From: Eledone cirrhosa
Taxonomy: Eukaryota
DNA length: 64,000 nucleotides
NCBI GenBank assembly: GCA_964016885.1
Contig: CAXHJY010000125.1
Location: 1,556 to 65,555, forward strand
Reading direction: 5' to 3'
The notes under the pieces are model-generated. The model did no database searches, was not told where the DNA came from, and saw nothing but the letters and a program-made list of their open reading frames with translations. Shown here piece after piece: positions 14,831-64,000 of the stretch (the stretch's first letter is position 1; each line of letters opens with the position of its first letter). The position numbers and the translations under genes are program-made.

Positions 14831-14990
14831 ATACTTTGGGAGGGTCATGTTACCAATAAGAAACACAGGCACCAGTTGCTTTCACTTCAATTTATTATAT
14901 ATCTATAAATTTATAAATCTACAAATCTACAAACTTATAAATTTCTGGTTGGTTGGTTGGTTCCACAACCAGATAGTTGTTTATATATAT

Positions 14991-15035
14991 AGTCATAGTC
15001 CTTTCGTCACACACTCTGTGACCTCTTCAGTGACT
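14991..15035 (-). ncRNA. Minimal type I hammerhead with one extra nt after A9
   Basis: AGTCA-CTGAAGA-G-GTCACA(GAGTG)TGTGAC-GAAA-GGAC-TA-TGACT. Confidence 0.75.
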
Positions 15036-15345
15036 GGGATTCCTTTCTTCGTTTCTGTGCCTTTCCTTTCTTCTATCCTACGCCATTTTGTTTCTGTGTA
15101 TGTGTTGTGTGCTCAGTTTGCGCATGCGCCACATCCGGGTGTCTGTGTGTGTTTGTGTTCATTTTTCTATTTTTCTATTTCTATTTTTCTACTTATATTT
15201 TTCTATTTGTTTATTTATTTATTTATTGTTGGTTGGTTGTTTGTTCTATGTGTGTGTGTGTTTTCATTTTGTCCTGTGTGTGTTTTCATTTTGTCCTTAA
15301 TTGTAAGTTGTTTGTTCTATGTGTGTGTGTGTTTTCATTTTGTCC

Positions 15346-16644: not shown

Positions 16645-16954
16645 ATGTTCCTTAAGGGTTCATTTTATGCTGGCCCCTACCGCATGTGCAATCATTTTCT
16701 TCAGTTCATCGTGGTTTTCGGGTGTCCGTATGGCTCTGGTCCACCCGTTCCATCTATCTGTGTGGGTTTTCTTGGCCATTGAGGTAATGGTAGGTGGTCT
16801 GCCTCTTGCTGGTCTTCTTCAGAAACGAAATATATATATATATATATATACATACATATGTGCTTTTTCATAAATACACATGAAGGCGAACTAGCCAGTT
16901 TTAGAATTCCCTTTATCGGATTATACTACTGTGAGAGCCCTGGTTTCTGTTGAA

Positions 16955-19543: not shown

Positions 19544-19844
19544 TATATAAATGTATATATATACAGAATATGAACCTGAAGATTTACTGTGTTTACTTCT
19601 ACACATATTAATATTATAATGCTCAGCATTTATACTTTGAGTTTGTTAATTGCAGGGTATCTATATGAGTTAATAACTCTATATTTTATTTGTATTTCGG
19701 CTCCATATCTGTTGACCTTATAAAAATGAGTGTAAATAGGCTATTATTTCTAGCATAACCACTAGCACCGCATGTTACTTTCAACGCACGACGTGTAAAC
19801 TTTAGTGATTTTCTTGTTATAGGTGTTGTGTATCATTTAATCTT

Positions 19845-19936
19845 ATCTCTCATTGACAAAATGCCTATGGATTACTTGTTACAAACACGATTTATTCAGG
19901 GCGAAACAGATTAAATCTTTAGTCTGTCCGGGAGAT
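19845..19936 (+). ncRNA. Variant or degenerate hammerhead (TTGACAA core, U3-A8 type, plus 3 extra nt)
   Basis: ATCTCTC/GGGAGAT stem I, GCCT..GGGC stem II, GAAA, CAGATTAAA(TC)TTTAGTCTG stem III, GTC site. Confidence 0.55.
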
Positions 19937-19984
19937 GAAATTGTTATTGATATGGTATGTATGAAAAATATTATAAGAAATCTT

Positions 19985-20255
19985 TGTGGGTATGGTGTGG
20001 CGTGCGGGGGGGGGGGAGTGCTCGACCGGAAGGGGTTTTTGAGTGCTCGACCGGAAGGGGTCTTTGACCGGAAGGATGCTCGACCGGAAGGGCCAGGAGA
20101 GGGCCTCTCTCTAGTGGTGACCAGCATACGGCGAGGACGCGTTTTGGGCAGCTCCCGGTTTTAAGCAGTCGGACGCACGTGGAAGAGGAGTACCTGCAGT
20201 GGAATTAAGCGGCGCCTGTGAAAAGCGATAAGTGAGATAGCTTTTTCTAACCACA
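19985..20255 (+). repeat. 5' LTR (271 bp; internal TGCTCGACCGGAAGG repeats)
   Basis: Near-identical to 23926-24193. Confidence 0.95.
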
Positions 20256-20325
20256 AGCTATTTCGGCGACTGAAAAAAAAAAAAAAAAAAGAAAAGAAAA
20301 CACTTGCCGCAAAACAAATCAGAAG

Positions 20326-21087
20326 ATGGCGACAAGACTACGGATGAACGAAGTTATCAGGCCATTCACCGGGGAAGGTGATGTTGTCGCTTGGCTGCGG
20401 AAGGTTCGGCTGGTCGCGGGCTTGCAGAAGATAGAAGACGTGGCCGGTCTCATTGCATTGTACCTCGAGGGCGACGCGTTGGTACTCTTCCTTGAGTTGG
20501 ACGAGCACAGCCAAAGAGATGTGCAGAAGATTGAGAGGCGTCTGATGGATGCATTCGCCGAGGGACCGTTGGCGGGCTTTTGCTAAGCTGGCGAGAATCA
20601 GGTGGAATGGTGAGCGCGTCGACATTTTCGCAGCGGAAATAAGGCGGTTGGCTATGTTGGCGGCTACCAGGCAGAATGCGAACGCACGGTGCGGTTGGCA
20701 TTCATCAATGGATTTCCGGACGACATAGCGGTGAAACTGCAGCAGGTCCCGGGGTACAAGGAGATGGAAATGCGTTCACTGGTGGAACAAGCCCGGATCA
20801 TAGCGGAAGATGCCAAAAAGAGTGTCGCGGCGATAGCGACTACGGAGGCTCAGGACACCTGGCAGCGAAATGGTCAAAGGGAAGCAACCTCGGCACGCGG
20901 CCGTTCGCGAGAATTTAAGGGCCGCTGTTTTAGGTGTAACGGCCCTCATATGGCTAGGGACTGTAGAGAGTCGAAGCCGGATATAATTTGCTACCGGTGT
21001 AAGCGACCAGGCCACATCGCTACTAACTGCGACCAGGGAAACGGTCCAAGGGGAACTACTGCGCCGGTAGTTACCCCTTACGAGTAG
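20326..21087 (+). pseudogene. gag: gag with two CCHC knuckles, frameshifted near 20575 and 20662
   Basis: IRPFTGEGDVVAWL...; CFRCNGPHMARDC and CYRCKRPGHIATNC; indels break the frame. Confidence 0.85.
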
Positions 21088-21093
21088 CGGCGC
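21036..21093 (+). promoter_or_regulatory. -1 programmed ribosomal frameshift signal (G GGA AAC + H-type pseudoknot)
   Basis: Heptamer in gag frame 21036-21042; 7-nt spacer; stem 1 GGGGAACTAC/GTAGTTACCCC; loop GCGCCG pairs CGGCGC 21088-21093; the -1 frame is open into pol. Confidence 0.85.
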
Positions 21094-21098
21094 TGCCC

Positions 21099-23912: not shown

Positions 23913-23925
23913 GATCAGGGTGGCG

Positions 23926-24193
23926 TGTGGGTATGGTGTGGCGTGCGGGGGGGGGGTGCTCGACCGGAAGGGGTTTTTTAGTGCTCGACCGGAAGGGGTC
24001 TTTGACCGGAAGGATGCTCGACCGGAAGGGCCAGGAGAGGGCCTCTCTCTAGTGGTGACCAGCATACGGTGAGGACGCGTTTTGGGCAGCTCCCGGTTTT
24101 AAGCAGTCGGACGCACGTGGAAGAGGAGTACCTGCAGTGGAATTTAGCGGCGCCTGTGAAAAGCGGTAAGTGAGATAGCTTTTTCTAACCACA
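23926..24193 (+). repeat. 3' LTR, preceded by a purine-rich tract
   Basis: Repeat of the 5' LTR with a few substitutions and indels. Confidence 0.95.
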
Positions 24194-24314
24194 ATCTTGT
24201 AACATCCCATATGATTCAGGTTAAATTATATGTAACATTTGTGGTGTAATCTACCCTTGTAATTTTAGACACAGGATTTACTGTGTTTTCTTCTACACAT
24301 ATTAATATTATAAT

Positions 24315-24401
24315 TGTTTCTACTTTAGGCACAAGGCCAGCAATTACCCAGTACATTACTGGTACTTTATTTTATCGACCCCGTAAGGATGAAAGACAAA
24401 G
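24315..24401 (-). mobile_element. 5'-truncated tRNA-SINE, TSD TTATAAT
   Basis: Same family as 63716-63917; the empty site is visible at ~19608-19625. Confidence 0.85.
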
Positions 24402-24504
24402 TTATAATGCTCAGTATTTATACTTTGAGCTTGTTAATTGCAGGGTATCTATATGGGTTAATAACTCTATATTTTATTTGTATAAATATATATATATATA
24501 TATA

Positions 24505-29128: not shown

Positions 29129-31025
<1,897 letters not shown>

Positions 31026-31212
31026 GTAGATAAATCTTCCAAAATGTACGGTAGTGTCCAATCCGTATGAAGAACTCAATGTCATCCGAATATGATGAAA
31101 AAAATGTATTCAAAAAATTTTTTCGATGAAAAACACAGGAAAACAGAGTCAAGATAATTTAATAAGAATAATGAATAAAAATAAAGAAACAGTTCCTTAT
31201 ATTGAAAAATTC

Positions 31213-31346
31213 ATCATTTTACGATCGTTTCTAGGATATATATGTGTGTGTTGGTATGTATATCATATAGATCTATGTAAAATTTTTACAAACTATCAGA
31301 GGGAATATACATACCTACACATATATATGCTGTCTTCAGAAATAAT
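31213..31346 (-). ncRNA. Hammerhead with a ~100-nt extended stem II
   Basis: ATTATTT-CTGAAGA-CAG..long hairpin..CTA-GAAA-CGATCG-TA-AAATGAT. Confidence 0.7.
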
Positions 31347-31527
31347 TGTTTCTACTTTAGGCACAAGGCCAGCAATTACCCAGTGCATTACTGGTACTTT
31401 ATTTTATCGACCCCGTAAGGATGAAAGGCAAAGTCAACCTCGGCGGGATTTGAACTCAGATCGTAAAGGGATGTAACTATGCTGGAAAGCATGGCGTCCG
31501 ACCCTCTACTGATACAGCCAATCCACC
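31347..31527 (-). mobile_element. tRNA-SINE, 18-bp TSD overlapping the HHR 5' strand
   Basis: A/B boxes; TSD 31329-31346 / 31528-31545. Confidence 0.9.
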
Positions 31528-31545
31528 GCTGTCGTCAGAAATAAT

Positions 31546-31727
31546 TATTTCTACTTTAGGCACAAGGCCAGAAATTACCCAGTGCATTACTGGTACTTTA
31601 TTTTATCGACCCCGTAAGGATGAAAGGCAAAGTCAACCTCGGCGGGATTTGAACTCAGATCGTAAAGGGACATAACTATGCTGGAAAGCATGGCGTCCGA
31701 CTCTCTACCGATACTGCCAATCCACCA
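31546..31727 (-). mobile_element. tRNA-SINE, 15-bp TSD, inserted in the TSD of the previous copy
   Basis: TSD 31531-31545 / 31728-31742. Confidence 0.9.
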
Positions 31728-34007
31728 GTCGTCAGAAATAATGATATTTGTTTATTGAAAAAAAACCAACAAAGATTTAATATAATAGGTCTGTTTGGGA
31801 ACAGGTTTTGAATTGACCAATAGAAAGGTAGTAAGTGGTCAAGATGGTAGAATAGTAGTAATGGAACTTTAATTTAGGGGTAGAGGAAGGCAGATTTCAG
31901 TTTTGAATGGAAAGAGTATAATGAATGAAAAGATTATTTTGGGGATGAAAATAGGTCAAGTCGGTAAAAGGTACACGAAAATTTGAAGTTATAAAAGAAT
32001 AGTGCTAATGTAAATATCTAAGGAGAATAAAATTTTACGTTAAATGTGTTAGTGAAAAATATCAATCTTATTTAAAACATAAGGAATTTACATCTATAAA
32101 AAGAAAATAAATGAATTAAATTGATAGGTATATTTATATTGATAAATTTATATTAATTCATATAGATATGATAAATAAGAGTTAGATGTAATTGAAGAAT
32201 GCTGTTAAAAACGAAGGGAAAATAAAAAAAAAATTATTATTATTGGGGGGGGGGGGGTTAAATTTATTAGTGAGAAATAACAAATTTATATAGATTATAA
32301 GGAATATAGATTCATAACCTGAAATTAAAATAGTTTATGTGTATACTTATTGGTATAAATTTTAGGAAAAGATAGCTGTAAAAGGGAAATAAAATTATGC
32401 AGTTCATTAGTAGTAGAATATTAATTATAAGTTAACTAATTTTAAAAAAGTGTTATTATTATAATTTGTAAAGTGTATATTAATTAGGTTTATAATATTT
32501 AAAAGTTCTTCTCAATTTATGATTACATGATATAATTAATTCCTGTCGCTTATTTAATAGGATATCCTTAGATTTCATTATTTCAAAAAGTTCCTGGGAA
32601 CATAATCTACATTCATATCTATTATTTTGATAAGGGGTGGCCCTTTTGAGTACACTCCAGGTCAGGTTATAATCTATATTCCTTTTTCTATAATTATTAA
32701 TTATTTCAGCTAAGGATGTTGTATTAGCTAATGCGGCATTTTTAAAACTGTGTTTGTGGGTATTAAATCTTACTTTAAATTGGTTAGAAGTAGCTCCTAT
32801 ATATGAATAAGTTGAGTCCTTAGTGTTAATTTTACCTTTATATACTATGTTATTAATAAGGCAATTTCCTTTTAATGGGCAATTTGCTTTGTTTCTACAG
32901 TTACAACCTTTCGTGAATGCTGTATCAGAGGAGATAGTCTAATTAGGTGTGGAATTTTCACGACTTGTATGTGAATGAGATGGTGGTTTGCTGTGGTTTA
33001 TTTTAGTATTATGGTTAGTTTGATGTATTGGTGGTAGTATATTCATGGTTTTTTTACATTTATATGCATTATAGGCACTTATATTTTGTTGTATATTTTT
33101 GGTTGTTGAGTAGGAGAATTTAACCGTTGATCTATTTAAAATTTGATGGTATTTATGGTTTGGCGGGAAGTTTTTCTCTATTATAGTAAAAAAAATTTTT
33201 TAGGTATATTATCTTTAATTTGTAGATTAAATGGAGCATTATACCAAGTAACTCGTCTATTACGGTTTCGATGTTGTTTATTATTTTTATAGGATGTATC
33301 CTGATGTTTATTAAGAGAATTAGTACTAGTGATTTTATTACACATATTTTTAGTTAGATTCATTGATTTAGGTGTTTTAGCCTGTTTATTAGGAATTTTG
33401 TTAACATATATTGGAGTATTAGGAGGAATGGTTTTTTGAAAGTTACTATATTGTATATTAGAAGAGTTAGAGAAATTAAGTTTTATGTTGGTATTTTTGG
33501 GTATAGTGTGAGTGGCATTTAGGTGTGTATATTTCATTTGGTGTTTGTTGGTAATATTGGGTTGTATGTTTGTAGTGTTATTGGTACAAGTTATATATAC
33601 TAATTTGTTTTTGTGGCCGCTTCTAGCTAAAGCTTCGTTATAAAAGGTCGCATTTTTATCAAATACATCCTGGTTAGACGAAAGGTTAGAAATTCTGAGT
33701 GAGATATTATATGCTAGGTTTTTAAGGATAGATTTAGGGTGATTAGATTGTGAGTGTATGTAATGTAAGTTTTGGTTAGGTTTATGGTAAGGTTGGAAGA
33801 TACATCTTCTCTTTTCATGATATTCGGATTACATTGAGTTCTTCATACTGATTGGACACTTTCGTACATTTTGGTAGATTTATCTACATACTTTGCTCCT
33901 AATTTTATGAAGGTATTCATATTTTTGTATATATATATATATATAATTTTATAACTCACTCTATATATATAGTTGAGCTCTTTTTCTTGTCCATTATCCA
34001 TATCACA

Positions 34008-35779
34008 ATGGAAAAACAATACTTGGGAACTTCTTTAAATAATATACCAATACCTTCTAAGGATGAATTCTTACTTCTTATGATACAAAAAAACAACCAA
34101 TTCATCAAAAGGGTCAGATGGAGGGCCTACCACTTCGATAAAAAAACAAAATGTACTGATAAGAAATATTTATATGATTTCACTACATATAAAAACCCAC
34201 CACACAACTCCTTGCTTGAAAACTTCGAGAAAGACCTTTTTAACTTAATCAAACACCTCAAATTTAAGAAATATAAATCTAATTTTCAAAAGGATCTTGA
34301 TTCTACCCTATTGGATCTATAAAAATCTAACAAAATCCATGTCCACTCTGACAAAATTGGAAATCTGTATCACATGGATATTGATAATTACAATGAGTTC
34401 ATATATAAAGAACTCAGGAAAAATTATAAAAAAACAAACAATGCGGCACTTACCAACATCAACAACAAAACACACAACATAGTAAATAGACTTAATATTG
34501 AAGATAGAACTGAACATTTGGCACTGAAAAAACCACATTTTAACCTGAAAGATCACAAATCTAATTTTAACTCTAATCCTTCTATAAGGCTTATATGCCC
34601 TTCCAAATCTGACATTGGCATCATTAGTAAAAAAATGTTTGTAGAGTCATCCCACAATTAAGAAAACATGTTAATTTACCACTCTGGGAAAACACATCCC
34701 AGCTAATTAACTGGTTTACTAATATTAGAAATAAATCTTCTGCTTCATTTCTACAATTCTATATAGATGCTTATTATTCCTCTATATCACCTATACTCCT
34801 GAACAAAGCCTTGATATTTGCCAAAAATAGATCAAACTTAACTATGGATGAAATTAATATTATCACACATGTTAGACAAACACTACTGGAATTTCAGAAA
34901 GAATACTGGACCAGAAACACATATAGTAATCTATTCGACATTACTATGGGCTCTAGTGATTCTGCCCAAATTACCGATCTTGTGGGCATCTTTCTTCTAT
35001 TTAACATAAATGTTTCTTTTCCCCACCTTAAAGGTGGTTTATATCGTGACGACTGTCTTCTTCTTTCCAATAACCTTAGCCTATCAGAAATTGAAAAAAA
35101 TAAAAAAACTTATTAGAACTTTCCTCAAAGACTATTATAGTCTCGATATTACATTTGAAAACACTAGTAAAGTAGTTAATTTCCTTGATATAACATTAGA
35201 CTTATCTACGGATATCTACCAACCTTACCATAAACCTAACCAAAACTTACATTACATACACTCACAATCTAATCACCCTAAATCTATCCTTAAAAACCTG
35301 TGAAAATTCCACACCTAATTTGACTATCTCCTCTGATACAGCATTCACGAAAGGTTGTAACTGTAGAAACAAAAGAAAATTGCCCATTAAAAGGAAATTG
35401 CCTTATTAATAACATAGTATATAAATGTAAAATTAACACTAAGGACTCAACTTATTCATATATAGGAGCTACTTCTAACCAATTTAAAGTAAGATTTAAT
35501 ACCCACAAACACAGTTTTAAAAATGCCGCATTAGCTAAGACAACATCCTTAGCTGAAATAATTAATAATAGAAAAAGGAATATAGATTATAACCTGACCT
35601 GGAGTGTGCTCAAAAGGGCCACCCCTTATCAAAATAATAGATATGAATGTAGATTATGTTCTCAGGAACTTTTTGAAATAATGAAATCTAAGGATATCCT
35701 ATTAAATAAGCGACAGGATTTAATTATATCATGTAATCATAAATTGAGAAGAACTTTTAAATATTATAAACCTAATTAA
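34008..35779 (+). pseudogene. PLE RT-GIY-YIG with stops, frameshifts and a ~750-bp internal deletion at 35299/35300
   Basis: SLNNIP, KRVRWRAYHF, LKDHK, MGSSDSAQ, YRDD, SNHP; the missing segment equals 32962-33715 of the minus arm. Confidence 0.85.
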
Positions 35780-36529
35780 TATACACTTTACAAATTATAA
35801 TAATAACACTTTTTTTAAATTAGTTAACCTATAATTAATATTCTACTACTAATGAATTGCATAATTTTATTTCCCTTTTACAGCTATCTTTTCCTAAAAT
35901 TTATACCAATAAGTATACGTATAAACTATTTTAATTTCAGGTTATGAATCTATATTCCTTATAATCTATATAAATTTGTTATTTCTCACTAATAAATTTA
36001 CCCCACCCCCCTAAATTATTATTATTATTATATTTTTAATTTTCCCTTCGTTTTTAACAGCATTCTTCAATTACATCTAATTCTTATTTATCATATCTAT
36101 ATGAATTAATATAAATTTATCAATATAAATATACCTATCAATTTAATTCATTTATTTTCTTTTTATAGATGTAAATTCCTTATGTTTTAAATAAGATTGA
36201 TATTTTTCACTAACACATTTAACGTAAAATTTTATTCTCCTTAGATATTTACATTAGCACTATTCTTTTATAACTTCAAATTTTCGTGTACCTTTTACCG
36301 ACTTGACCTATTTTCATCCCCAAAATAATCTTTTCATTCATAATACTCTTTCCATTCAAAACTGAAATCTGCCTTCTTCTACCCCTAAATTAAAGTTCCA
36401 TTACTACTATTCTACCATCTTGACCACTTACTACCTTTCTATTGGTCAATTCAAAACCTGTTCCCAAACAGACCTATTATATTAAATCTTTGTTGGTTTT
36501 TTTTCAATAAACAAATATCATTATTTCTG

Positions 36530-36707
36530 GATTGGCAGTATCGGTAGAGGGTCGGACGCTATGCTTTCCAGCATAGTTACGTCCCTTTACGATCTGAGTT
36601 CAAATCCCGCCGAGGTTGACTTTGCCTTTCATCCTTACGGGGTCGATAAAATAAAGTACCAGTAATGCACTGGGTAATTTGCTGGCCTTGTGCCTAACGT
36701 AGAAACA
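36530..36707 (+). mobile_element. tRNA-SINE, TSD ATTATTTCTG
   Basis: B box GAGTTCAAATCCC; flanking duplications. Confidence 0.9.
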
Positions 36708-36720
36708 ATTATTTCTGAAG

Positions 36721-36894
36721 ATTGGCAGTATCGGTAGAGGGTCGGACGCCATGCTTTCCAGCATAGTTACGTCCCTTTACAATCTGAGTTCAAATCCCGC
36801 CGAGGTTGACTGCCTTTCATCCTTACGGGGTCGATAAAATAAAGTACCAGTAATGCACTGGGTAATTGGTGGCCTTGTGCCTAAAGTAGAAACA
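36721..36894 (+). mobile_element. tRNA-SINE, TSD ATTATTTCTGAAG
   Basis: As above. Confidence 0.9.
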
Positions 36895-37030
36895 ATTATT
36901 TCTGAAGACAGCATATATATATATGTAGGTATGTATATTCCCTCTCATAGTTTGTAAAATTTTTACATAGATCTATATGATATACATACCAACACACACA
37001 TATATATCCTAGAAACGATCGTAAAATGAT
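36895..37030 (+). ncRNA. Hammerhead with extended stem II (PLE C + arm)
   Basis: CTGAAGA 36902-36908, GAAA 37012-37015, ACGATCGT palindrome, GTA site. Confidence 0.7.
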
Positions 37031-37111
37031 GAATTTTTTAATATAAGGAACTGTTTCTTTGTTTTTATTCATTATTTTTATTAATTTATATATATGTATA
37101 TATATATATAA

Positions 37112-38249: not shown

Positions 38250-38437
38250 TATATATATAAATATATAGATATAGATAGGTAAATATACACGGGTGTGTAT
38301 GATTGTGTATAGAAGATTAAATTAATAAGAGGAATTCCAACTTTGTCTGATTTACTCGTTTTATTTACAATCCTTTAAAATATATAATGGTATTATAATG
38401 AAATAGTATGATACAATATTAAATTCTAAGTGTTAAT

Positions 38438-38476
38438 TGAACAAGTACTTTCATGCTTTCGCAATCTTCAGGTTCA
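38438..38476 (-). ncRNA. Minimal hammerhead
   Basis: Reverse complement of 38534-38572. Confidence 0.8.
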
Positions 38477-38533
38477 TAATATGTGGTGACAGTCGAGTTT
38501 GCAATTTTCAAATTCGACTGTCACCACATATTA

Positions 38534-38572
38534 TGAACCTGAAGATTGCGAAAGCATGAAAGTACTTGTTCA
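38534..38572 (+). ncRNA. Minimal hammerhead
   Basis: TGAAC-CTGAAGA-TTGC(GAAA)GCAT-GAAA-GTAC-TT-GTTCA. Confidence 0.8.
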
Positions 38573-38689
38573 ATTAACGCTTAGAATTTAATATTCTATC
38601 ATACTATTTCATTATAATACCATTATATATTTTAAAGGATTGTAAATAAAACGAGTAAATCAGACAAAGTTGGAATTCCTCTTATTAAT

Positions 38690-40295
<1,606 letters not shown>

Positions 40296-43511: not shown

Positions 43512-43753
43512 GCTCTAGTATTAATGTAAGGGAGATATATAGAGAGAGAAAGAATATAGAGAGAGAAAAAATAGCGAGAGAAAAAAATTTAAAAAATAGC
43601 CAGATATATTCGAGGCGTAAAAAAACCCTATGTTTTAATGTATTAGTATTTATAAAACTTCCAAATATACTCCAAATATTTGTCGAGTGCTTCTATATCA
43701 GTTATAAATATTTACTAGTTGTAACCCAACAATTTTAAATATAACTTTCCATA
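43046..43753 (-). mobile_element. Diverged PLE-A-family fragment: pLTR end (43046-43660, -) plus inverted 5'-UTR piece (43663-43753, +)
   Basis: Similar to 1-590 and to the reverse complement of 3867-3957. Confidence 0.8.
43084..43149 (-). ncRNA. Hammerhead (PLE-A family)
   Basis: Homolog of 24-89. Confidence 0.65.
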
Positions 43754-43757
43754 TATA

Positions 43758-43843
<86 letters not shown>

Positions 43844-43899
43844 TATATATATTCATATATATATATATATATATATTCATATATATATATATATATATA

Positions 43900-43965
<66 letters not shown>

Positions 43966-43989
43966 TATATATATATATATATATATATA

Positions 43990-44107
<118 letters not shown>

Positions 44108-44143
44108 TATATATATATATATATTCATATATATATATATATA

Positions 44144-44231
<88 letters not shown>

Positions 44232-44486
44232 TATATATATATATATATTCATATATATATATATATATATTCATATATTGTTATATTTGGGGAGGGTCAT
44301 ATTTGCGTAATATTGCCAGAATTAATAACAGAACACACTCACTGTTTGGTTGGTTTTCGCTTCTCGCTGTCTTTTATATATATATATCTGCGATCTAACT
44401 TACTCGGTCCTCAATGTTGCCATTGACTGACCGGCGGTCAAAAATAATACAGATACAATATAGACAAACACATATATATATAGTTT

Positions 44487-44529
44487 ACATAAATCTTTCG
44501 TTGCACATCTGCAACATCGTCAGTGGTGT
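44487..44529 (-). ncRNA. Hammerhead-like motif (mirror of 49021-49063)
   Basis: Reverse-complement copy. Confidence 0.55.
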
Positions 44530-44799
44530 TATATTCATTGTTCCTCCTGTTGTGTTGTATGTCTACGCCATTTTTTTTGTTCAGTCTGTCTATATATTTA
44601 TTTATTTATTTATTTGCTTGTTTGTTTATCTTATTTTATTTTGTCTTCTTTGCGCATGCGTTTGCGTGTGTGTATAGTGTTATGTGTGATGTGTGACTAG
44701 TGTGTATAGTGTTGTGTCTGCTGGGTGACTAGTGTGTGTTTATGTGCTTGTGTATGTATTTATTTATCTTATTTTATTTAATTTAATTTACTTATTTAT

Positions 44800-46710
44800 T
44801 TATACTTCTCTTAGGTCAGTGTTGTTTGTTTGGGTGTTGTTGTTGTTCCACTCATTCTTTCTGTTTAGCTTTGGTCTTCTAATTTCTATTTCACTGGCCT
44901 CTCTGATTTGCCTATCTGCTGGGTCATTCCTATGTTTAGATATTATTCTAATTTCTATGTTGTCTATGTTACCGTCATGATGTTGTCTAGCATGTTCGTA
45001 TAGTACTGACCCGTTTTTTCGTCCTTTTAGTTCCCCCCAGTGTTGGTCTATCCTTTCACCTATGCTACGAGCTGTCTCACCTATGTATGTTGTTGTCGTG
45101 TTTCTGCAAGTACCCTCTGTACATCTTATGCTATAGACTACGTTTCTAGTTTTACAGTTTATCCGGGGGTTCACCTTACATATGATACATTTCCTATTGG
45201 TACAGTGGGTTTTCTTAAAAGGGTAGGTTTTGCTGATCAGGGATTTTATGGTGGTTCCTGGCTTTTCTACCACCTTTATTTTTAAGTGGGTCTTTCTCAG
45301 GGCCTTTCTACACTGGTTAGCTAATTTCCCTCCAGGGGTGGCGTCCACAAACATGACACTCTGATATCTCTGGTTGTCGTACCATGATGTGGCCTTCCCT
45401 ATCTTATGTCTAGCCCTATCTAAGCTATTCCATGATTTGCTCCTGTATAGTGGGCAAATTCCTTTCATGTCCAGTTCTATGAGGGTCTTATACTTTTCCA
45501 TGGCTCCTTCGTATACTCTGACTCTGTCTCTTTGGTTGTAGCCAGAGAACTGCATGCGGTTGATGAAGTGTTGGATGTGTCCTTCCATTTCTGTTGGGTC
45601 GCACATGCTGGACACATTCTTCATCACTCGTACCAAATCTGCGATCAGAATATTAAACTTAGCACTACTGGACATTGCTGAGTTTTTGAGTATCAGGTAT
45701 TTGGAGGCCATGGGTTTAGCATAGTGTGAGTGGAGAATTTGGGCTCTCTCGTCTATAGTGTTAATCCAGAGTTCTGTGTCTAATACAGGTAGTCTATTGT
45801 TAGGGTGTTTGGAAGGGAAGTCTATAGTTACAGTTATACTCTGGTGTATGGAATTAGCTATCTGCTGGATGCTTTCCATCGTGCTACGTTCTAAATCAAA
45901 CTTGTTAGTGCTCTCTAGTGGGGGTGTTCTTATAACTATATTGATATCGTCTACATAACGAGAGTACATGATGAGGTCTATGGAGCTTTCATTAAGGAGA
46001 TCTTTAAGTCTCCTTTCCCACCATACCATGAAAAGGTTGGCAACATCGCCAGCTATGCTGACGCCGATGGCTGCTCCCTCATTTTGGGTGTAGATTTTCT
46101 CATTGAACTTAAATATGTGGCCCTTTAGGGTAGTTTTGATACTAGCCCCTATTGCATGTGCGACCATTTTTCTTACCTGATCAGTGTTTTGGGGGGTCCG
46201 TATAGCTTTGGTCCACCCAATCCACCTTCCTATGGGAGTCTTTTTAGCCATTGAGGTTATGGTGGGGGGTCTACCTCTTATAGGTCTACTAGGGCAGAAA
46301 CATCTAAGGTCATGGCTGTCTAGGTAGTCAGTGTCGTAGGTAAGTCTAAGTAGGAGGCCCAGTTCGTCTGTGTCGACGTCGCAGAACTCCACCTCACTCT
46401 CAATGATCATCTCCACACATCTTTTCACAGCAAAATCAATGTTAATGGATGGGTACAGTGACACCACATCCATGCTGCCTATTATGCAGTTGGATAGGCT
46501 CCTGTTTTTGTTGCACTCACTGATTCCGCTGAGGAGGTCCTCTGTACTTTCACATACATCTGGGGACATCTTGATTATGGGGCGTATAACCATTGAGAGG
46601 AAGTAGGAGATCCTGTAGTTGCTAGCTATATTAGCTCCGCATACAGGTCTTGTTGGTGGTCCTATTGTCGGGTCGTCGACTGTCTTGTGGTCTTTGCGGA
46701 GCCCATACAA
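44800..46710 (-). CDS. PLE RT + GIY-YIG (5'-truncated; frame open to the palindrome centre)
   Basis: LRKDHK, MDVVSLYPSI, GAAIG, RYVDD, VVY...YIGET. Confidence 0.92.
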   Translation of the reverse strand: MYGLRKDHKTVDDPTIGPPTRPVCGANIASNYRISYFLSMVIRPIIKMSPDVCESTEDLLSGISECNKNRSLSNCIIGSMDVVSLYPSINIDFAVKRCVEMIIESEVEFCDVDTDELGLLLRLTYDTDYLDSHDLRCFCPSRPIRGRPPTITSMAKKTPIGRWIGWTKAIRTPQNTDQVRKMVAHAIGASIKTTLKGHIFKFNEKIYTQNEGAAIGVSIAGDVANLFMVWWERRLKDLLNESSIDLIMYSRYVDDINIVIRTPPLESTNKFDLERSTMESIQQIANSIHQSITVTIDFPSKHPNNRLPVLDTELWINTIDERAQILHSHYAKPMASKYLILKNSAMSSSAKFNILIADLVRVMKNVSSMCDPTEMEGHIQHFINRMQFSGYNQRDRVRVYEGAMEKYKTLIELDMKGICPLYRSKSWNSLDRARHKIGKATSWYDNQRYQSVMFVDATPGGKLANQCRKALRKTHLKIKVVEKPGTTIKSLISKTYPFKKTHCTNRKCIICKVNPRINCKTRNVVYSIRCTEGTCRNTTTTYIGETARSIGERIDQHWGELKGRKNGSVLYEHARQHHDGNIDNIEIRIISKHRNDPADRQIREASEIEIRRPKLNRKNEWNNNNTQTNNTDLREV

Positions 46711-46839
46711 GGGTGGTATGCCATTGTTAGACGCCTGGAAGTTGTTGGCAGTGCGTCTGCTTGGCTTTAGGATGACATCCTAAAGCCAAGCAGACGCACT
46801 GCCAACAACTTCCAGGCGTCTAACAATGGCATACCACCC

Positions 46840-48750
46840 TTGTATGGGCTCCGCAAAGACCACAAGACAGTCGACGACCCGACAATAGGACCACCAACAA
46901 GACCTGTATGCGGAGCTAATATAGCTAGCAACTACAGGATCTCCTACTTCCTCTCAATGGTTATACGCCCCATAATCAAGATGTCCCCAGATGTATGTGA
47001 AAGTACAGAGGACCTCCTCAGCGGAATCAGTGAGTGCAACAAAAACAGGAGCCTATCCAACTGCATAATAGGCAGCATGGATGTGGTGTCACTGTACCCA
47101 TCCATTAACATTGATTTTGCTGTGAAAAGATGTGTGGAGATGATCATTGAGAGTGAGGTGGAGTTCTGCGACGTCGACACAGACGAACTGGGCCTCCTAC
47201 TTAGACTTACCTACGACACTGACTACCTAGACAGCCATGACCTTAGATGTTTCTGCCCTAGTAGACCTATAAGAGGTAGACCCCCCACCATAACCTCAAT
47301 GGCTAAAAAGACTCCCATAGGAAGGTGGATTGGGTGGACCAAAGCTATACGGACCCCCCAAAACACTGATCAGGTAAGAAAAATGGTCGCACATGCAATA
47401 GGGGCTAGTATCAAAACTACCCTAAAGGGCCACATATTTAAGTTCAATGAGAAAATCTACACCCAAAATGAGGGAGCAGCCATCGGCGTCAGCATAGCTG
47501 GCGATGTTGCCAACCTTTTCATGGTATGGTGGGAAAGGAGACTTAAAGATCTCCTTAATGAAAGCTCCATAGACCTCATCATGTACTCTCGTTATGTAGA
47601 CGATATCAATATAGTTATAAGAACACCCCCACTAGAGAGCACTAACAAGTTTGATTTAGAACGTAGCACGATGGAAAGCATCCAGCAGATAGCTAATTCC
47701 ATACACCAGAGTATAACTGTAACTATAGACTTCCCTTCCAAACACCCTAACAATAGACTACCTGTATTAGACACAGAACTCTGGATTAACACTATAGACG
47801 AGAGAGCCCAAATTCTCCACTCACACTATGCTAAACCCATGGCCTCCAAATACCTGATACTCAAAAACTCAGCAATGTCCAGTAGTGCTAAGTTTAATAT
47901 TCTGATCGCAGATTTGGTACGAGTGATGAAGAATGTGTCCAGCATGTGCGACCCAACAGAAATGGAAGGACACATCCAACACTTCATCAACCGCATGCAG
48001 TTCTCTGGCTACAACCAAAGAGACAGAGTCAGAGTATACGAAGGAGCCATGGAAAAGTATAAGACCCTCATAGAACTGGACATGAAAGGAATTTGCCCAC
48101 TATACAGGAGCAAATCATGGAATAGCTTAGATAGGGCTAGACATAAGATAGGGAAGGCCACATCATGGTACGACAACCAGAGATATCAGAGTGTCATGTT
48201 TGTGGACGCCACCCCTGGAGGGAAATTAGCTAACCAGTGTAGAAAGGCCCTGAGAAAGACCCACTTAAAAATAAAGGTGGTAGAAAAGCCAGGAACCACC
48301 ATAAAATCCCTGATCAGCAAAACCTACCCTTTTAAGAAAACCCACTGTACCAATAGGAAATGTATCATATGTAAGGTGAACCCCCGGATAAACTGTAAAA
48401 CTAGAAACGTAGTCTATAGCATAAGATGTACAGAGGGTACTTGCAGAAACACGACAACAACATACATAGGTGAGACAGCTCGTAGCATAGGTGAAAGGAT
48501 AGACCAACACTGGGGGGAACTAAAAGGACGAAAAAACGGGTCAGTACTATACGAACATGCTAGACAACATCATGACGGTAACATAGACAACATAGAAATT
48601 AGAATAATATCTAAACATAGGAATGACCCAGCAGATAGGCAAATCAGAGAGGCCAGTGAAATAGAAATTAGAAGACCAAAGCTAAACAGAAAGAATGAGT
48701 GGAACAACAACAACACCCAAACAAACAACACTGACCTAAGAGAAGTATAA
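46840..48750 (+). CDS. PLE RT + GIY-YIG (identical mirror copy)
   Basis: Translation identical to 44800-46710. Confidence 0.92.
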   Translation: MYGLRKDHKTVDDPTIGPPTRPVCGANIASNYRISYFLSMVIRPIIKMSPDVCESTEDLLSGISECNKNRSLSNCIIGSMDVVSLYPSINIDFAVKRCVEMIIESEVEFCDVDTDELGLLLRLTYDTDYLDSHDLRCFCPSRPIRGRPPTITSMAKKTPIGRWIGWTKAIRTPQNTDQVRKMVAHAIGASIKTTLKGHIFKFNEKIYTQNEGAAIGVSIAGDVANLFMVWWERRLKDLLNESSIDLIMYSRYVDDINIVIRTPPLESTNKFDLERSTMESIQQIANSIHQSITVTIDFPSKHPNNRLPVLDTELWINTIDERAQILHSHYAKPMASKYLILKNSAMSSSAKFNILIADLVRVMKNVSSMCDPTEMEGHIQHFINRMQFSGYNQRDRVRVYEGAMEKYKTLIELDMKGICPLYRSKSWNSLDRARHKIGKATSWYDNQRYQSVMFVDATPGGKLANQCRKALRKTHLKIKVVEKPGTTIKSLISKTYPFKKTHCTNRKCIICKVNPRINCKTRNVVYSIRCTEGTCRNTTTTYIGETARSIGERIDQHWGELKGRKNGSVLYEHARQHHDGNIDNIEIRIISKHRNDPADRQIREASEIEIRRPKLNRKNEWNNNNTQTNNTDLREV

Positions 48751-49020
48751 ATAAATAAGTAAATTAAATTAAATAAAATAAGATAAATAAATACATACAC
48801 AAGCACATAAACACACACTAGTCACCCAGCAGACACAACACTATACACACTAGTCACACATCACACATAACACTATACACACACGCAAACGCATGCGCAA
48901 AGAAGACAAAATAAAATAAGATAAACAAACAAGCAAATAAATAAATAAATAAATATATAGACAGACTGAACAAAAAAAATGGCGTAGACATACAACACAA
49001 CAGGAGGAACAATGAATATA

Positions 49021-49063
49021 ACACCACTGACGATGTTGCAGATGTGCAACGAAAGATTTATGT
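49021..49063 (+). ncRNA. Hammerhead-like motif, extra nt after A9, weak stem I
   Basis: CTGACGA-T-GTTGCA(GATG)TGCAAC-GAAA-GATT-TA; same position as the HHR of PLE B. Confidence 0.55.
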
Positions 49064-49330
49064 AAACTATATATATATGTGTTTGTCTATATTGTATCTG
49101 TATTATTTTTGACCGCCGGTCAGTCAATGGCAACATTGAGGACCGAGTAAGTTAGATCGCAGATATATATATATAAAAGACAGCGAGAAGCGAAAACCAA
49201 CCAAACAGTGAGTGTGTTCTGTTATTAATTCTGGCAATATTACGCAAATATGACCCTCCCCAAATATAACAATATCTGTTTCGACACACGATTTCATATA
49301 AAAAACCTCGCAAAACTAATTCATCGCCGC

Positions 49331-51539
<2,209 letters not shown>

Positions 51540-51540
<1 letters not shown>

Positions 51541-52148
51541 TATGTCAGGTCACCAGTTGGTGCTACTGGTAACATGTATCCCAGTACAACCTGTCTCATG
51601 GTCGGGTCGTTGGCGACTAAACTGGCAACCCCACCAAGGTTTCTTGGTGAGGAGGGTGACTTTGGACATCCTGCAGGACTAAAAACAAAACCTGTCAAAG
51701 GGCAAGGGAGCTCTTAAGACTCAATAGCCATCCAAAATCACCGGGAGAGATGACCCCTTAGCCTTTGTCAAGGCACAATTCTAGGAGAAGGAAAACTCTG
51801 ATATAACACCTGCAACCCTGATGGTATCCAATGATGTTGACTTGTTCTTCTTTTTGGTAAATATCATCTTGGTTAAAAGAGTGGGACTGGCTTTGTGCAG
51901 TGCCTTTGCTCACTATAAAAGCTTCACAGCACAGGCATTGCTTTATATCTGGAGATCTCTCTGCACTTGTCATCACATGGTCAATATGATGCACTATGTG
52001 TCAATAATGGTCACAAGTGTAGTCTTTGTACCAGAGTTTTCAAGTCGCTGGCTGGACTAAAAAGTCACATTCGTTCAGCGCATCGGTAGGGGTTCTCCTA
52101 CATGGATATAAAGCAGTGGCCGTACTCGAAAACGAGTTGGCAGCCACC

Positions 52149-52150: not shown

Positions 52151-58473
<6,323 letters not shown>

Positions 58474-59613
58474 AGGTGTGTATACATTTGCTTCGTTTTG
58501 TAATTTCCGGTTGATTGTTTTTATTTACCACTCACTGTCTGGCTTTGCTCATCCACACATGTCTGTCTACTAACCTTGAAATTATAAGTATTTATTTATT
58601 TATATATTATATGCCTATTTTTAAAATATATTACATTATGATATAGATCCTTAATACTTACCGTTTATTATATATAACATTAAGATAGTTAAACTTTATA
58701 TTTTTTAATATTTTTTATATTTTTATATTTTAATATTTTAACATTGTAATATGTAACATTATTGTATTTAGACTTTACATATCTTGTTAGATGTCTATAT
58801 TTTTTCTGTAACAACATATTTTTTCTGTAACATCATAATTGTTCCCTGTACCAATATAGTTTTTTTGAGTATTATTGTATTATATTATATGATTGATATT
58901 TCCCCATTTATTATGTAACCTAGTATGAATCATGTTGTACATATTGATTATGGTAATTGTTAATATAATGTTAACAATTTATCATTGTATTTCACTGTGA
59001 CATCTATATTGTTTCTGTAAATTAACCGGAGATTATATATATTCTTATTATATATATCCTACTTTATTATATTGTATTATATTATATAATTTTGTTGTTT
59101 ATTATTTATTATAAGTGTTTCTTGTAATTATTGCCTCATGTATATTGGGTAGATGTATTAGCATTATTTTCACTATTACCATGCTTATTTTTATATTTTT
59201 GATGTTCAAACTTCCAATAGGGCTTAATTTCTGTGTAATAGAAAATAGATATGTGTATTGTAATATGTGTGTGTGTGTGTGTGTGTGTGCGCACATATAT
59301 ACATGTATATATTGTACCTTTTGATTTTTGATTTGGAATTTCAGTGTTGGTATAGATATATTGTTATTATAATGTATTATACTGTGTTATATATAATTCC
59401 TGCTCTATATAACCAAATTTGTTTAGATTTAAGTTGGTGACTTTGGACTATATTTGTAATATGGTTCTTAATGTTATCTACATCCTTAGTTATTATAATT
59501 TTATTATTTTTATCTTCATTTTTATTATCGTATATCCTTGTAAGAGATTAGTGTATGTAAACTCCATATTCTTCAGAGTTTCTGGCTTGTATCTGCCGAA
59601 ATTACCTCTTGTT

Positions 59614-59670
59614 GTTTTGATTGCCCTGATGAGTCCTTAATAGGACGAAACATTGTCGGCTAATAAAAAC
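59614..59670 (+). ncRNA. Minimal type I hammerhead, predicted cleavage after C59657
   Basis: GCC-CTGATGA-GTCCT(TAAT)AGGAC-GAAA-CATTG-TC-GGC with extended stem I. Confidence 0.9.
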
Positions 59671-59887
59671 TTTTGATGTATTAAAGGATTCTTTGTTTTA
59701 CTCTCTTAATTTTTCGGCTCTGTTTAACTGCATTGAGTTATACCTTTTACTGTCATTTCTATAATACGAAGAGGGTGTTTGACTCAAACACGCTCCAGTA
59801 TTCTAATCCTTGTAACTGCTCCCAATAGGTTGAGCTTACTCACATATATACTGGCATTTTGGCCTCTATATATTTTTATCTGACAGT

Positions 59888-62581
59888 ATGCTGACAAAGA
59901 GTTACTTGCCTTTATCTCTGAAAAATATTCCCACCCCCTCTAAGAATACTTACCAAAAACTACTGATAGCTAGTGTTAACTCCTTTGTAAAAAGGATTAG
60001 ATGGCGTGCGTTTCACTACGATAGTAATAAGAATAGGAACGACCCCAGGATTAGAACTAAGTTTAATAGCTACGGCTTCAAAACGTATAAGAGCCCACCA
60101 CACAACATACTATTAGACAGTTTTGAAAGTGACTTACTCTCTCTGGTTAAAAATGTTAGGTTTAGGCCAAATGATAGACATAGAAACAATAGTAAATTTG
60201 ATAAATTCCAGTCCAGACTTAAAAGTATTGTTAAGGGTTTCGGGGAGAATAAGTCCATTCTGGTCCCGGCAGATAAGACTAAGAATCTATACTCCATGGA
60301 CTATAGTACATACCGCGATTTTATTTATAAAGAGTTATATAGAAACTATAAAAAAACTACGCTTGAGAATGTGAACCACATCAATAGTGAGGGCCTTAGA
60401 ATAGTCTCTGACCTCGGACTCGATAAGTATACCCAGCCTTATTACCCTCGAGAACCGAGATTCACACTTAAGGACCATAAGGTTGATTTTATTAGTAACC
60501 CCTCAGTTAGACTTATCTGTCCTTCTAAGTCGGATATAGCCATTATCAGTAAAAAAATCCTTGACCTTATTATACCAGATGTTAGGAATAGGGTTAATTT
60601 TAACTTATGGGGGAACACTAGGGAAGTTATAGATTGGTTCTCTGGGATTAATAGACTTGAATCTAATAAGTTTATCCAATTCGATATTGATGCCTACTAC
60701 ACATCAATTTCACCCATCCTCCTCAATAAAGCCTTAATGTTGGCCATGAGAGTGTCCAGCCTTACACGATCGCAGGTAGATATTATACTAGCAGCCCGTA
60801 AAACTATTATTAAATTTGAGGACTCTTTTTGGACCCGTAAAAACACGCCCAATAATTTCGACGTTACAATGGGTTTGAGCGATTCGGCCCAGGTTACTGA
60901 TCTTGTTGGGTTGTTCCTCCTTAATGAACTATACGCTACCTTCCCGCACCTTGTAGGCGGACTATATCGTGATGATGCATTGTTTATAATTAACTCTAGT
61001 ACCAACAATGTAGAACGTAATAAGAAGAAGCTTTATAAGTTTTTTAATAACTACAACCTTTCAATCACGATGGATAGAAATGATAGAGCGGTTAACTTTT
61101 TAGATGTGACTTTGGACTTGGCTACTAATAGTTTTAAACCCTTCCATAAGCCTAATGAAATTCTTTCTTATGTTAGCCCCAATTCTAACCACCCTAAGTC
61201 TATGATAAACTCTATAATTAAGGGCGTTTCTAATAGGATTTCCACACTATCTAAGGACATAGGAACTTTTAATGAACATGCGGAGTACTACAATAACGCC
61301 CTAGCAAATTCAGGTCACTCTAGTAAAATAAATTATAATAATAGTAACTTTAGAAAGTCTCCGCTTACTCTTAATAATAATAACATTATATCACATAACA
61401 TGGCTATGAATGTGAGTAGCAAACTTAGTAACCGTAGAACTTATATAGGAGTATCTGAACCCACCCATAAGTTATCCCACCGGACTCGTAATAACAAATA
61501 TAATACCTCTAAGAGACAAGTCGAGCCCCCTGTGCGCTCACGCATTGGTGTCGGTTTGGCTGGATCTTGTTCTAGTAATGTTGCTCGTACTGATCCTATC
61601 ATTGGCCTTAATCCTCTTGTAGGGACTCTGAACAACAGTGGATCTACTGGAGGTAGAAAATATAATAGGCATAATGTAATTATGGCTGATTCTATGAATG
61701 CGGCTTCAAATATTCCCGATAGTAACCCTAGTCTCGAAGGTGGGACTTTTGATAGAGGCAGGGTCGATAAGAATAAAAATAAAAATAGAAGGCGATTGAA
61801 TACTTATTTCAACCCGCCATATAACCAGGATGTATCAACTAATATCCCTAGGTCTTTCTTCACTATCCTGGAGAAAAATTTCCCCCCTTCTCACAAATAC
61901 CATGGTATTTTTAATAAAAATGTTATTAAACTATCATTCTCTACCACCCCTAATATTAGTTCTCATTTAGCTAGCACTAACAATAGGAAGATTAGGGATG
62001 GATTCTTCTCTCTGCAGACTAATAGTCTGAATGCATCGGACAATGCTTTACCACCAGAACAGTCCTTATCTAATAGAGATCCTAGGTGCAATACATCTCC
62101 ACTTGAGCCAACCAATAACACCCGGAAGTGCAATTGTAGAGTGAGTGCTAACTGCCCTCTAAACGGTAACTGCCTTTCTAAAAACATAGTCTATGCTTGC
62201 GAGGTTATAACTAATTCCTCTAAAGGAACATATATAGGATCTACTTCAAACACTTTTAAGACTAGGTTTAACTCTCATATCTCTAACTTCAAACATATTA
62301 GGTTTAAGAATTCTACCTCTCTAGTGCATTATATCTGGGACCTTAAGGGAGCTTGTATACCATATAGCCTTAACTGGAGTTTAGTAGCACGATCTAACCA
62401 CCTTTCTGCACATAGTAAGTTTTGTAATCTCTGTATACTTGAGACACACTCTATTATTTTCTCTAGCGTACCCTTACTGAATAGAAAGTCTGAGATATTC
62501 TCTTCTTGCCCCCATGCAATTTCTAATTCTTACTTTTATTATAAACCCAAACGTTCTAGTAGTACAAATCGTACCCATTAG
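59888..62581 (+). CDS. Intact PLE RT + GIY-YIG endonuclease, 897 aa
   Basis: SLKNIP, KRIRWRAFHY, ADKT, LKDHK, FDIDAYY, YRDD, SNHP, CNCRVSANCPLNGNC, IVY...YIGST, CNLC. Confidence 0.95.
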   Translation: MLTKSYLPLSLKNIPTPSKNTYQKLLIASVNSFVKRIRWRAFHYDSNKNRNDPRIRTKFNSYGFKTYKSPPHNILLDSFESDLLSLVKNVRFRPNDRHRNNSKFDKFQSRLKSIVKGFGENKSILVPADKTKNLYSMDYSTYRDFIYKELYRNYKKTTLENVNHINSEGLRIVSDLGLDKYTQPYYPREPRFTLKDHKVDFISNPSVRLICPSKSDIAIISKKILDLIIPDVRNRVNFNLWGNTREVIDWFSGINRLESNKFIQFDIDAYYTSISPILLNKALMLAMRVSSLTRSQVDIILAARKTIIKFEDSFWTRKNTPNNFDVTMGLSDSAQVTDLVGLFLLNELYATFPHLVGGLYRDDALFIINSSTNNVERNKKKLYKFFNNYNLSITMDRNDRAVNFLDVTLDLATNSFKPFHKPNEILSYVSPNSNHPKSMINSIIKGVSNRISTLSKDIGTFNEHAEYYNNALANSGHSSKINYNNSNFRKSPLTLNNNNIISHNMAMNVSSKLSNRRTYIGVSEPTHKLSHRTRNNKYNTSKRQVEPPVRSRIGVGLAGSCSSNVARTDPIIGLNPLVGTLNNSGSTGGRKYNRHNVIMADSMNAASNIPDSNPSLEGGTFDRGRVDKNKNKNRRRLNTYFNPPYNQDVSTNIPRSFFTILEKNFPPSHKYHGIFNKNVIKLSFSTTPNISSHLASTNNRKIRDGFFSLQTNSLNASDNALPPEQSLSNRDPRCNTSPLEPTNNTRKCNCRVSANCPLNGNCLSKNIVYACEVITNSSKGTYIGSTSNTFKTRFNSHISNFKHIRFKNSTSLVHYIWDLKGACIPYSLNWSLVARSNHLSAHSKFCNLCILETHSIIFSSVPLLNRKSEIFSSCPHAISNSYFYYKPKRSSSTNRTH

Positions 62582-63715
62582 CAGATATATTCCATTACTT
62601 AGTTCTTTGTTTGGGTTCTTTTGTTTGCCAACACTATTGTTACCATTGGTTTTTGATGACTCTTCATTCTAGCTCTCATAATCATTTGGCCACTGTACCA
62701 TATCTATGTCTTCACTATTACACCTTGTTAGTATACATAAGATTACACACGTTATTACCTTTATATATTCTTTTATTATCATTAACTTTAATTTTTACTT
62801 TAACATTATTTTTATTTTTAATTCTATTTATATTTTTATTTCTAAGTCTATTCTGATTTATCTATTAACCCCCCCCCCCCCTTCTCCCCCCCCCCATGCA
62901 CGCATAAACTTATTGTCAACCCCTCTAGATTGAATATGATTATATTAAACCCCCCCCCCCACTCTTTTATGCTCTGTTCTATTATTTATTATAGTATATC
63001 GAATATATTTTATGCCACTTCGCACCCTCCATATATTTTGTCAATTCTGTCCCCATTAGCTTACCTTAACTATACCTAAGTCAGTTTTTTAGATATCGTT
63101 GCGTGTATGATAAGTGTAATTTTATTCCTTTTTGTAAACATTTGTAACGATACATTAAAGTTTATATACTTTAATGACTTAGACTATAGCTAATTTTATA
63201 CTACCTTATCGGACGGGTTTGATATCTTTAATATTAATTTATCAAATAGGGTTTGGAGTCATTTAAAATGATCGTTTTCCTTGGTGTTTACCAAATTTCT
63301 TAATGCACGCGACTTAAGTGTGTATACATTTGCTTCGTTTTGTAATTTCGGTTGATTGTTTTATTTACCACTCACTGTCTGGCTTTGCTCATCCACACAT
63401 GTCTGTCTACTAACCTTGAAATTATAAGTATTTATTTATTTATATATTATATGCCTATTTTTAAAATATATTACATTATGATATAGATCCTTAATACTTA
63501 CGTTTATTATATATAACATTAAGATAGTTAAACTTTATATTTTTTAATATTTTAATATTTTTATATTTTAATATTTTAACATTGTAATATGTAACATTAT
63601 TGTATTTAGACTTTACATATCTTGTTAGATGTCTATATTTTTTCTGTAACAACATATTTTTTCTGTAACATCATAATTGTTCCCTGTACCAATATAGTTT
63701 TTTTGAGTATTATTG

Positions 63716-63917
63716 GGCGGTGGATTGGCAGTATCGGTAGAGGGTCGGACGCCATGTTTTCAAGCATAGTTACGTCCCTTTATGATCTGAGTTCAAATCC
63801 CGCCGAGGTTGACTTTGCCTTTCATCCTTACGGGGTCGATAAAATAAAGTACCAGTAATGCACTGGATAATTTAATGCACTGGATAATTGCTGGGCCTTG
63901 TGCCTAAAGTAGAAACA
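63716..63917 (+). mobile_element. Full-length tRNA-derived SINE, TSD ATTATTG
   Basis: A box TGGCAGTATCGG, B box GAGTTCAAATCCC; the empty site is in the 5' pLTR at ~58871. Confidence 0.93.
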
Positions 63918-64000
63918 ATTATTGTATTATATTATATGATTGATATTTCCCCATTTATTATGTAACCCAGTATGAATCATGTTGTACATATTGATTATGG

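Follow-up and report, generated by a model that had tools for sequence, protein, structure and literature searches.

The 64,000-nucleotide (nt) stretch of Eledone cirrhosa DNA analysed here, referred to as the window, carries a perfect palindrome, which is probably a single young head-to-head insertion of a Penelope-like element (PLE) into a (TA)n array, generated when both nicked target strands primed cDNA synthesis and the cDNA ends were then joined. Among the loci seen, it has the longest arms around a 1-nt centre, yet it is one of a recurring class, making this single locus an extreme yet expected member of the family distribution.

Architecture and authenticity of the locus

An exhaustive scan of the whole window for exact palindromes identified positions 44275–46774 and 46776–49275 as exact reverse complements of 2,500 nt each around a single A at 46775, as the initial annotation had described; the next-best exact palindromes have arms of at most 58 nt and lie inside TA arrays. 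The junction, TG-A-CA (46773–46777), is a natural quasi-palindromic 5-mer of the element, and its central base belongs to the element sequence of the right arm. The left arm (44275–46774, minus strand) is a PLE copy that is truncated at its 5' end and terminates at the tail-less ("+0") end, and the right arm (46776–49275, plus strand) is a 5'-truncated copy consisting of natural element sequence from 46773. The 55-nt extension reported for the right arm only (49276–49330, plus strand) is element sequence, corresponding to the first 55 nt of the next tandem unit, and forms a tail at this one end. The insertion is bordered by a 13-nt target-site duplication, with the 13-mer at 44266–44278 repeated in direct orientation at 49331–49343 (both plus strand). 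The final 4 nt of the left copy (ATAT) are also the left arm's first 4 nt, and the first 3 nt of the right copy are the element's next 3 nt. The host flanks on the left (43751–44274) and right (49344–51560) are stretches of the targeted (TA)n array with TTCA interruptions of the same polarity, as ATTCAT and ATGAAT occur in ratios of 16:1 and 38:3, respectively. A near-identical high-copy repeat (1,490 candidates) is inserted in the right TA array at 51560–52140, and a TA-rich near-palindrome of 370 nt (97%) is found at 38318–38692.

Both arms contain an identical open frame (44800–46779, minus strand; 46771–48750, plus strand) of 659 amino acids (aa) from stop to stop; counted from its first TTG it has 636 aa, and from its first ATG 597 aa. 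While the reported identity of the two frames holds, the "636-aa ORF" is not a gene with its own start but a 5'-truncated piece of a frame of ~1,200 aa, of which the left-arm frame lacks approximately the first 550 aa. The left-arm frame covers the RT core, thumb, Zn linker, and GIY-YIG, and the right-arm frame displays DVVSLY at aa 104, YVDD at aa 275, a CX4CX2C linker at aa 526, and, at aa 547, a GIY-YIG-type motif containing two inner cysteines. Neither arm encodes the N-terminal part of the protein, so a non-autonomous copy is predicted at this locus. The 3' UTR includes a candidate hammerhead-like core (49027–49060, plus strand; CTGACGA, stem II, GAAA) with a mirror copy at 44490–44523; the core and stem II are visible, stem I looks incomplete, and no Rfam hammerhead match was obtained. 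Judging from the arms, cruciform extrusion and hairpin RNA at the palindrome are plausible.

The locus is very probably real. A read fold-back or assembly artefact, or arms equalised by consensus polishing, could be suspected from the small, repeat-rich contig (65,555 nt, nearly all covered by the window) and from the absence of arm differences, which would be ~6% probable at the rate of asymmetric loci. Yet, a fold-back would mirror everything past the arm, whereas the flanks hold one polarity, the tail is found on one side only, and the 13-nt duplication, which includes the non-symmetric TTCA, is direct, which argues against a fold-back, as this mirrors the flank rather than repeating it directly. 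Furthermore, an older locus (~96% identical) on a 443-Mb sequence has the same centre between different flanks. An artefact is thus very improbable, as the initial annotation had judged from some of the same features, although polishing could still mask a few arm differences. In public contig sets from other samples, which carry fixed differences, no joint is listed at the centre, and loose ends at the centre run on into the natural upstream element. No RNA set is listed as containing it. A search with both flanks, both being high-copy repeats, recognised no allelic copy or empty site, and the best other match of the left flank is 93% identical over its full length. Rfam miRNA matches at the centre were dismissed, as they score below the gathering threshold and any perfect hairpin gives such matches.

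The element, its age and its donor

The element is abundant in its own genome (3.0 Gb), where a DNA search returned 1,301 candidates, the 40 scored being 99–100% identical; exact matches to its 3'-end motif number 3,408, and 1,088 matches are found at the position of the locus's centre. Tandem copies have a unit of 4,147 nt, and the full-length frame of about 1,200 aa (1,205–1,209 aa stop to stop) includes an Asn-rich insert. In L021 (3174–6791) and L004 (2558–6187), the full-length frame lacks an in-frame ATG close to its start and stays open through the tail, and the insert spans ~165 aa N-terminal of the RT.

RT motifs, a GIY-YIG-type nuclease, a tandem unit, and a tail are all present, in agreement with the proposal that a PLE made the locus. 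What the arms themselves encode is limited to the RT core, the thumb, the CX4CX2C linker, and a GIY-YIG-type nuclease at the C-terminus. The RT motifs DVVSLY and YVDD of the arm are found in 81 and 82 of 84 homologues, respectively, and the arm's RVT_1 match (E = 0.00017) is below the Pfam cut-off. The nuclease is recognised by motif, namely VVY..C..C..YIGET followed by two histidines in HARQHH (CCHH-type, with two cysteines between GIY and YIG). Pfam GIY-YIG gave no match on the arm's nuclease segment and one on the distant homologue P0083, and the strict GIY-YIG/CCHH pattern matched only 6 of the 84 homologues. The CX2-5CxxC linker reads CTNRKCIIC at aa 526, ahead of the C-terminal nuclease, and the RT precedes the nuclease in all 48 homologues having both motifs. 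The best named relative is a hypothetical protein of Octopus vulgaris (69%); a PDB sequence search and a Pfam search with the full-length frame returned no matches. These features point to a Neptune/Nematis-type PLE, an assignment made from the feature list in the available text of PMC8557442. The family's 4,147-nt tandem unit, inverted arms, and one-sided tails (+43 to +55) correspond to the tandem or inverted insertions, pLTRs, and one-sided tails of endonuclease-bearing (EN+) PLEs. A further EN+ trait is a type I hammerhead in the pLTR, for which the element offers the candidate core with its incomplete-looking stem I. The N-terminal GIY-YIG of Naiad/Chlamys is not seen, the nuclease being C-terminal, nor are the traits of the Hydra clade (no CCHH, a CxCX5C linker, <3 kb), as the element has a CCHH-type nuclease, a CX4CX2C linker, and a 4.1-kb unit.

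Several other elements are found in the window. A 71%-identical relative at 14826–16818 (minus strand) is a single arm with an equivalent +0 end in (TA)n, and its 3' UTR holds, by eye, a minimal type I hammerhead that is complete, including a stem I of 5 bp. Further PLE-like insertions, which have RT/GIY-YIG-like frames and terminal repeats in inverted or direct orientation, are located at 66–5934, 31023–37089, and 58472–64000, and hammerhead-like cores at 59626 (plus strand), 39535 (minus), and 24598 (minus). In addition, an LTR retrotransposon-like element with direct repeats (19614–24483) carries a 961-aa protease/RT/integrase-like frame (21027–23912), and an uninterrupted 1,045-aa frame resembling a LINE endonuclease-RT lies between TA arrays at 7428–10565 (plus strand).

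The insertion is very recent, as had been proposed; over 2,156 compared sites it departs from the family majority by a single lineage variant, which places it among the youngest of the copies compared. The marker variant shared by the arms is found at 34 places, and three other pairs carry it in both arms; a private reverse-transcription error was therefore rejected as its origin. Across the compared loci, 42 of 44 arm–arm differences are private to the locus and two are variants seen at other loci. Since these differences are mostly private and the marker occurs in both arms of pairs, both arms of an insertion appear to derive from one donor. Two asymmetric loci are equally young, with no differences in 1,451 nt (L016) and one in 1,582 nt (L008). 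Symmetric loci have 0.5 arm–arm differences per kb compared with 1.3 for asymmetric loci (P = 0.08), as would be expected if one arm was a copy of the other, or if palindromes do not persist for long.

Ends and junctions of head-to-head insertions

The rarity of such a palindrome is easily overstated, as the head-to-head layout is common in the family and centres of 0–3 nt recur. On the largest sequence, the first 100 ends listed include 28 head-to-head and 2 tail-to-tail neighbours. Centres of 0–3 nt are found in 5 of 26 head-to-head loci taken in position order, where shuffled arm pairs give an expectation of 0.42; three of the positions were hand-corrected for poly(A) slippage, and the uncorrected values are 4 and 0.19. 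The arms of these five loci measure 40–340 nt, so symmetric centres are in excess even among short arms. Four of the five lie within one 15-nt zone beside the poly(A) run, which means that shared stop sites account for part of the excess. The symmetric centres of L045, L058, L061, and L066 cluster in a 15-nt zone immediately 5' of the poly(A) run inside the element, where the reverse transcriptase may stop. Among 23 loci picked for long near-identical copies, L002 has a 1-nt centre with arms of ~1.25 kb, L011 a 2-nt centre with arms of ~2.2 kb, and L015 a 13-nt centre with 2.9-kb arms. The exact centre of the palindrome recurs once more in the genome, at C1:329.62 Mb (L035). This independent, older insertion has different flanks and is ~96% identical, its left arm jumps after 43 nt, and its arm with the natural centre is the tail-less one. 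The centre is suggestive of a truncation hot spot, as 4 of 12 copies that differ just before the centre base are truncated there and 1,088 copies span the base, a count that includes the palindrome itself and one locus from the junction search and has no control position beside it.

The outer ends follow a near-strict rule. Exactly one tailed end is found in 65 of 69 resolved head-to-head insertions, while four have two tails and none has zero; the count omits L004, L012, L030, L038/39, L092, and L109, in which outer ends fall outside the sequence covered or the structure is nested. In the 65 insertions, one end is at +0 (range −7 to +4) and the other at +43 to +55. An independent choice of start site would predict one tail in half of the insertions. 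Flanks informative at a length of 13 nt were available for 16 of 47 loci, and 8 of the 16, the palindrome included, have an exact 13-nt direct repeat in a fixed register, whereas any other duplication length from 5 to 25 nt occurs at one locus at most, and two further loci match 13 nt with a one-base shift. The four terminal element bases at the +0 end coincide with the end of the duplication, and the first three flank bases at the +55 end with the next element bases, as expected if each nicked strand served as a primer on sense RNA. The longer arm, reaching further 5', is the tail-less one in 25 of 49 loci and the tailed one in 18. In L067, L073, L100, and L103, the second arm comprises just 13–40 nt of tail and was thus not templated by a cDNA started at +0.

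At the junctions, overlaps of at least 2 nt are present in 28 of 36 simple asymmetric cases compared with 15% by chance; the overlap lengths are BLAST ends and may be inflated, and the 36 omit junctions with inserts or long mismatched overlaps. Apparently templated inserts copied from nearby were seen by eye in L020, L032, L034, L038, and L047. Overlaps and inserts of this kind fit polymerase-theta-type joining (PMC4912351), in which the host enzyme would presumably take part. As the element itself reads TGACA at the palindrome centre, two cDNA ends of TGTCA could pair around a T-T mismatch, and L002 (TC-A-GA) and L066 (CAG-T-CTG) have the same junction form. In L011, L045, L058, and L061, the symmetric centre is either blunt or holds a small insert, without 3' pairing for a hairpin. 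Energy models of the folded cDNA end gave neither a 3' hairpin nor the TGTCA register, and two ends favoured a shifted register. Snap-back does occur in the family, as seen from fold-backs of ~43 nt at the 5' end of the long arm in L035, at the same centre, and of 44 nt in L040. Nested duplicated head-to-head structures with one junction present twice are found in L056 (523–6698) and L111 (599–8433), possibly representing retrotransposed or recombined palindromic units.

Formation of the palindrome and known systems

We propose that two-ended priming proceeds in two steps. In the first, the GIY-YIG nuclease would cut both strands 13 nt apart, after which the 3' end ending in ATAT primes at the +0 site of the RNA and the other, ending in ATA, at +55, with the RNA for both cDNAs coming from one donor. 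Stagger, start sites, and donor of this step are likely as described. In the second, both cDNAs would stop within 3 nt of each other at GGATGTCA and be united by microhomology end joining across the quasi-palindrome TGTCA, probably through a host polymerase-theta-type pathway, with fill-in completing a perfect palindrome. This step is weaker than the first, joining being only slightly preferred to a snap-back bridge, and the last event at the palindrome may have been either joining of co-terminal ends or snap-back followed by annealing to the second cDNA. The strict pairing of start site to strand is suggested by genomic copies of an element from a clade other than that described in the available text of PMC11167929. 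Beyond this, it could be speculated that a PLE dimer reads one RNA twice, at +0 and at +43/+55, once for each strand of the 13-nt staggered cut, and that co-terminal run-off at the same broken RNA end yields the spacerless palindrome, a reading that is possible rather than probable.

Snap-back alone, the origin favoured in the initial annotation, would have the cDNA started at +55 fold at TG-T-CA and copy itself, the second nick then priming at +0 on the new plus strand, with asymmetric copies arising by later central deletions. It accounts for the exact arm identity, single tail, and duplication of the palindrome, resembles the 43-nt and 44-nt fold-backs at C1:329.62 Mb and L040, agrees with the slightly fewer arm differences at symmetric loci, and has a known agent, as polymerase theta carries out snap-back synthesis (PMC4912351). 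Yet, it requires a 2-bp stem with a 1-nt loop where no 3' hairpin is predicted, and yields without later deletion neither longer tail-less arms (25/49) nor tail-only arms; moreover, asymmetric loci can be equally young (L016, L008). Even at C1:329.62 Mb, the natural centre is on the tail-less arm, so a second primed cDNA is still needed. In its simple form, snap-back is thus insufficient for the family and on the whole unlikely, while it may have served as the last joining step here.

Two other routes are much less likely still. One, put forward for rotifer Penelope elements to explain head-to-head repeats with junction palindromes (PMC3846280), is self-priming on an antisense transcript. It leaves the two fixed outer ends with 3–4 nt of target microhomology to sense RNA and the fixed 13-nt duplication unexplained, and the template in vitro is sense RNA (PMC11167929); this route is very unlikely. 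An ordinary asymmetric insertion might instead have been symmetrised later by break repair or gene conversion between its arms. Fold-back repair can turn inverted repeats into palindromes, yet this copy is among the youngest, its junction is a 5-mer natural to the element that reappears at an independent locus, and symmetric centres are in excess even in short arms, making later symmetrisation very unlikely.

Long near-spacerless palindromes are normally regarded as unstable, and three with kilobase arms (this locus, L002, and L011) persist in an animal genome, where retrotransposition is suggested to generate them repeatedly. If the dimer reading is true, the family would be a routine source of perfect palindromes. 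The proposed route yields sharp predictions that suit the existing in vitro system, namely a 13-nt stagger, one start site per strand, one-donor arms, and end-joining scars. PMC8557442 singles out the formation of inverted repeats and of a one-sided tail by PLEs as an open problem, and PMC11167929 does not settle it, as far as the available texts of both go.

Inverted copies, junction palindromes, and one-sided tails are already in print (PMC3846280, PMC8557442). The Neptune/Nematis-type EN+ PLEs described in PMC8557442 share with the Eledone family the domain order of RT, Zn linker, and GIY-YIG with two inner cysteines, 5' truncation, partial tandems, an inverted 5'-truncated copy, a tail often at one end, and (TA)n targets. 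However, the tail is 43–55 nt in the Eledone family compared with 30–40 nt in those elements, the duplication has a 13-nt mode instead of being variable or indiscernible, and one tail per insertion is near-strict (65/69), unlike the description in the available text. The Penelope elements of Adineta vaga (PMC3846280), for which antisense self-priming is favoured, likewise have head-to-head inverted repeats, junction palindromes, and an optional tail on one inverted end, and their 8–10-bp duplications and Asn-rich ORF inserts can be likened to those of the Eledone family. Yet, their junction palindromes measure 18–38 bp, whereas Eledone arms reach 2.5 kb around a 1-nt centre, their copy number is low in contrast to thousands of ends, and the Asn-rich insert is N-terminal of the RT in the Eledone family only. 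PAc, a Poseidon element of the green anole, has a comparable AT-rich target and a tail at the ORF start, and in vitro both strands are cut and extended, two RNA start sites define the tail, and a dimer is predicted (PMC11167929). However, PAc belongs to a different clade and displays no strand-specific start-site use in vitro, and the available text of that study does not explain inverted insertions. The available text of PMC12910113 holds nothing on insertion structure, and a retrozyme preprint contributes only clade context.

The layout itself is already known. In the accessible literature on PLEs, no strict one-tail rule, fixed 13-nt duplication, or two-ended priming was found for autonomous insertions, and subscription papers or supplements may contain such counts. 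A further parallel is LINE-1 twin priming, reportedly described by Ostertag and Kazazian in 2001, in which both target ends prime cDNA and microhomology joining leads to an inversion. While the two cDNAs cover different parts of the RNA in LINE-1 twin priming, those of the Eledone PLE would cover the same 3' part, and the product is therefore an inverted repeat or a palindrome.
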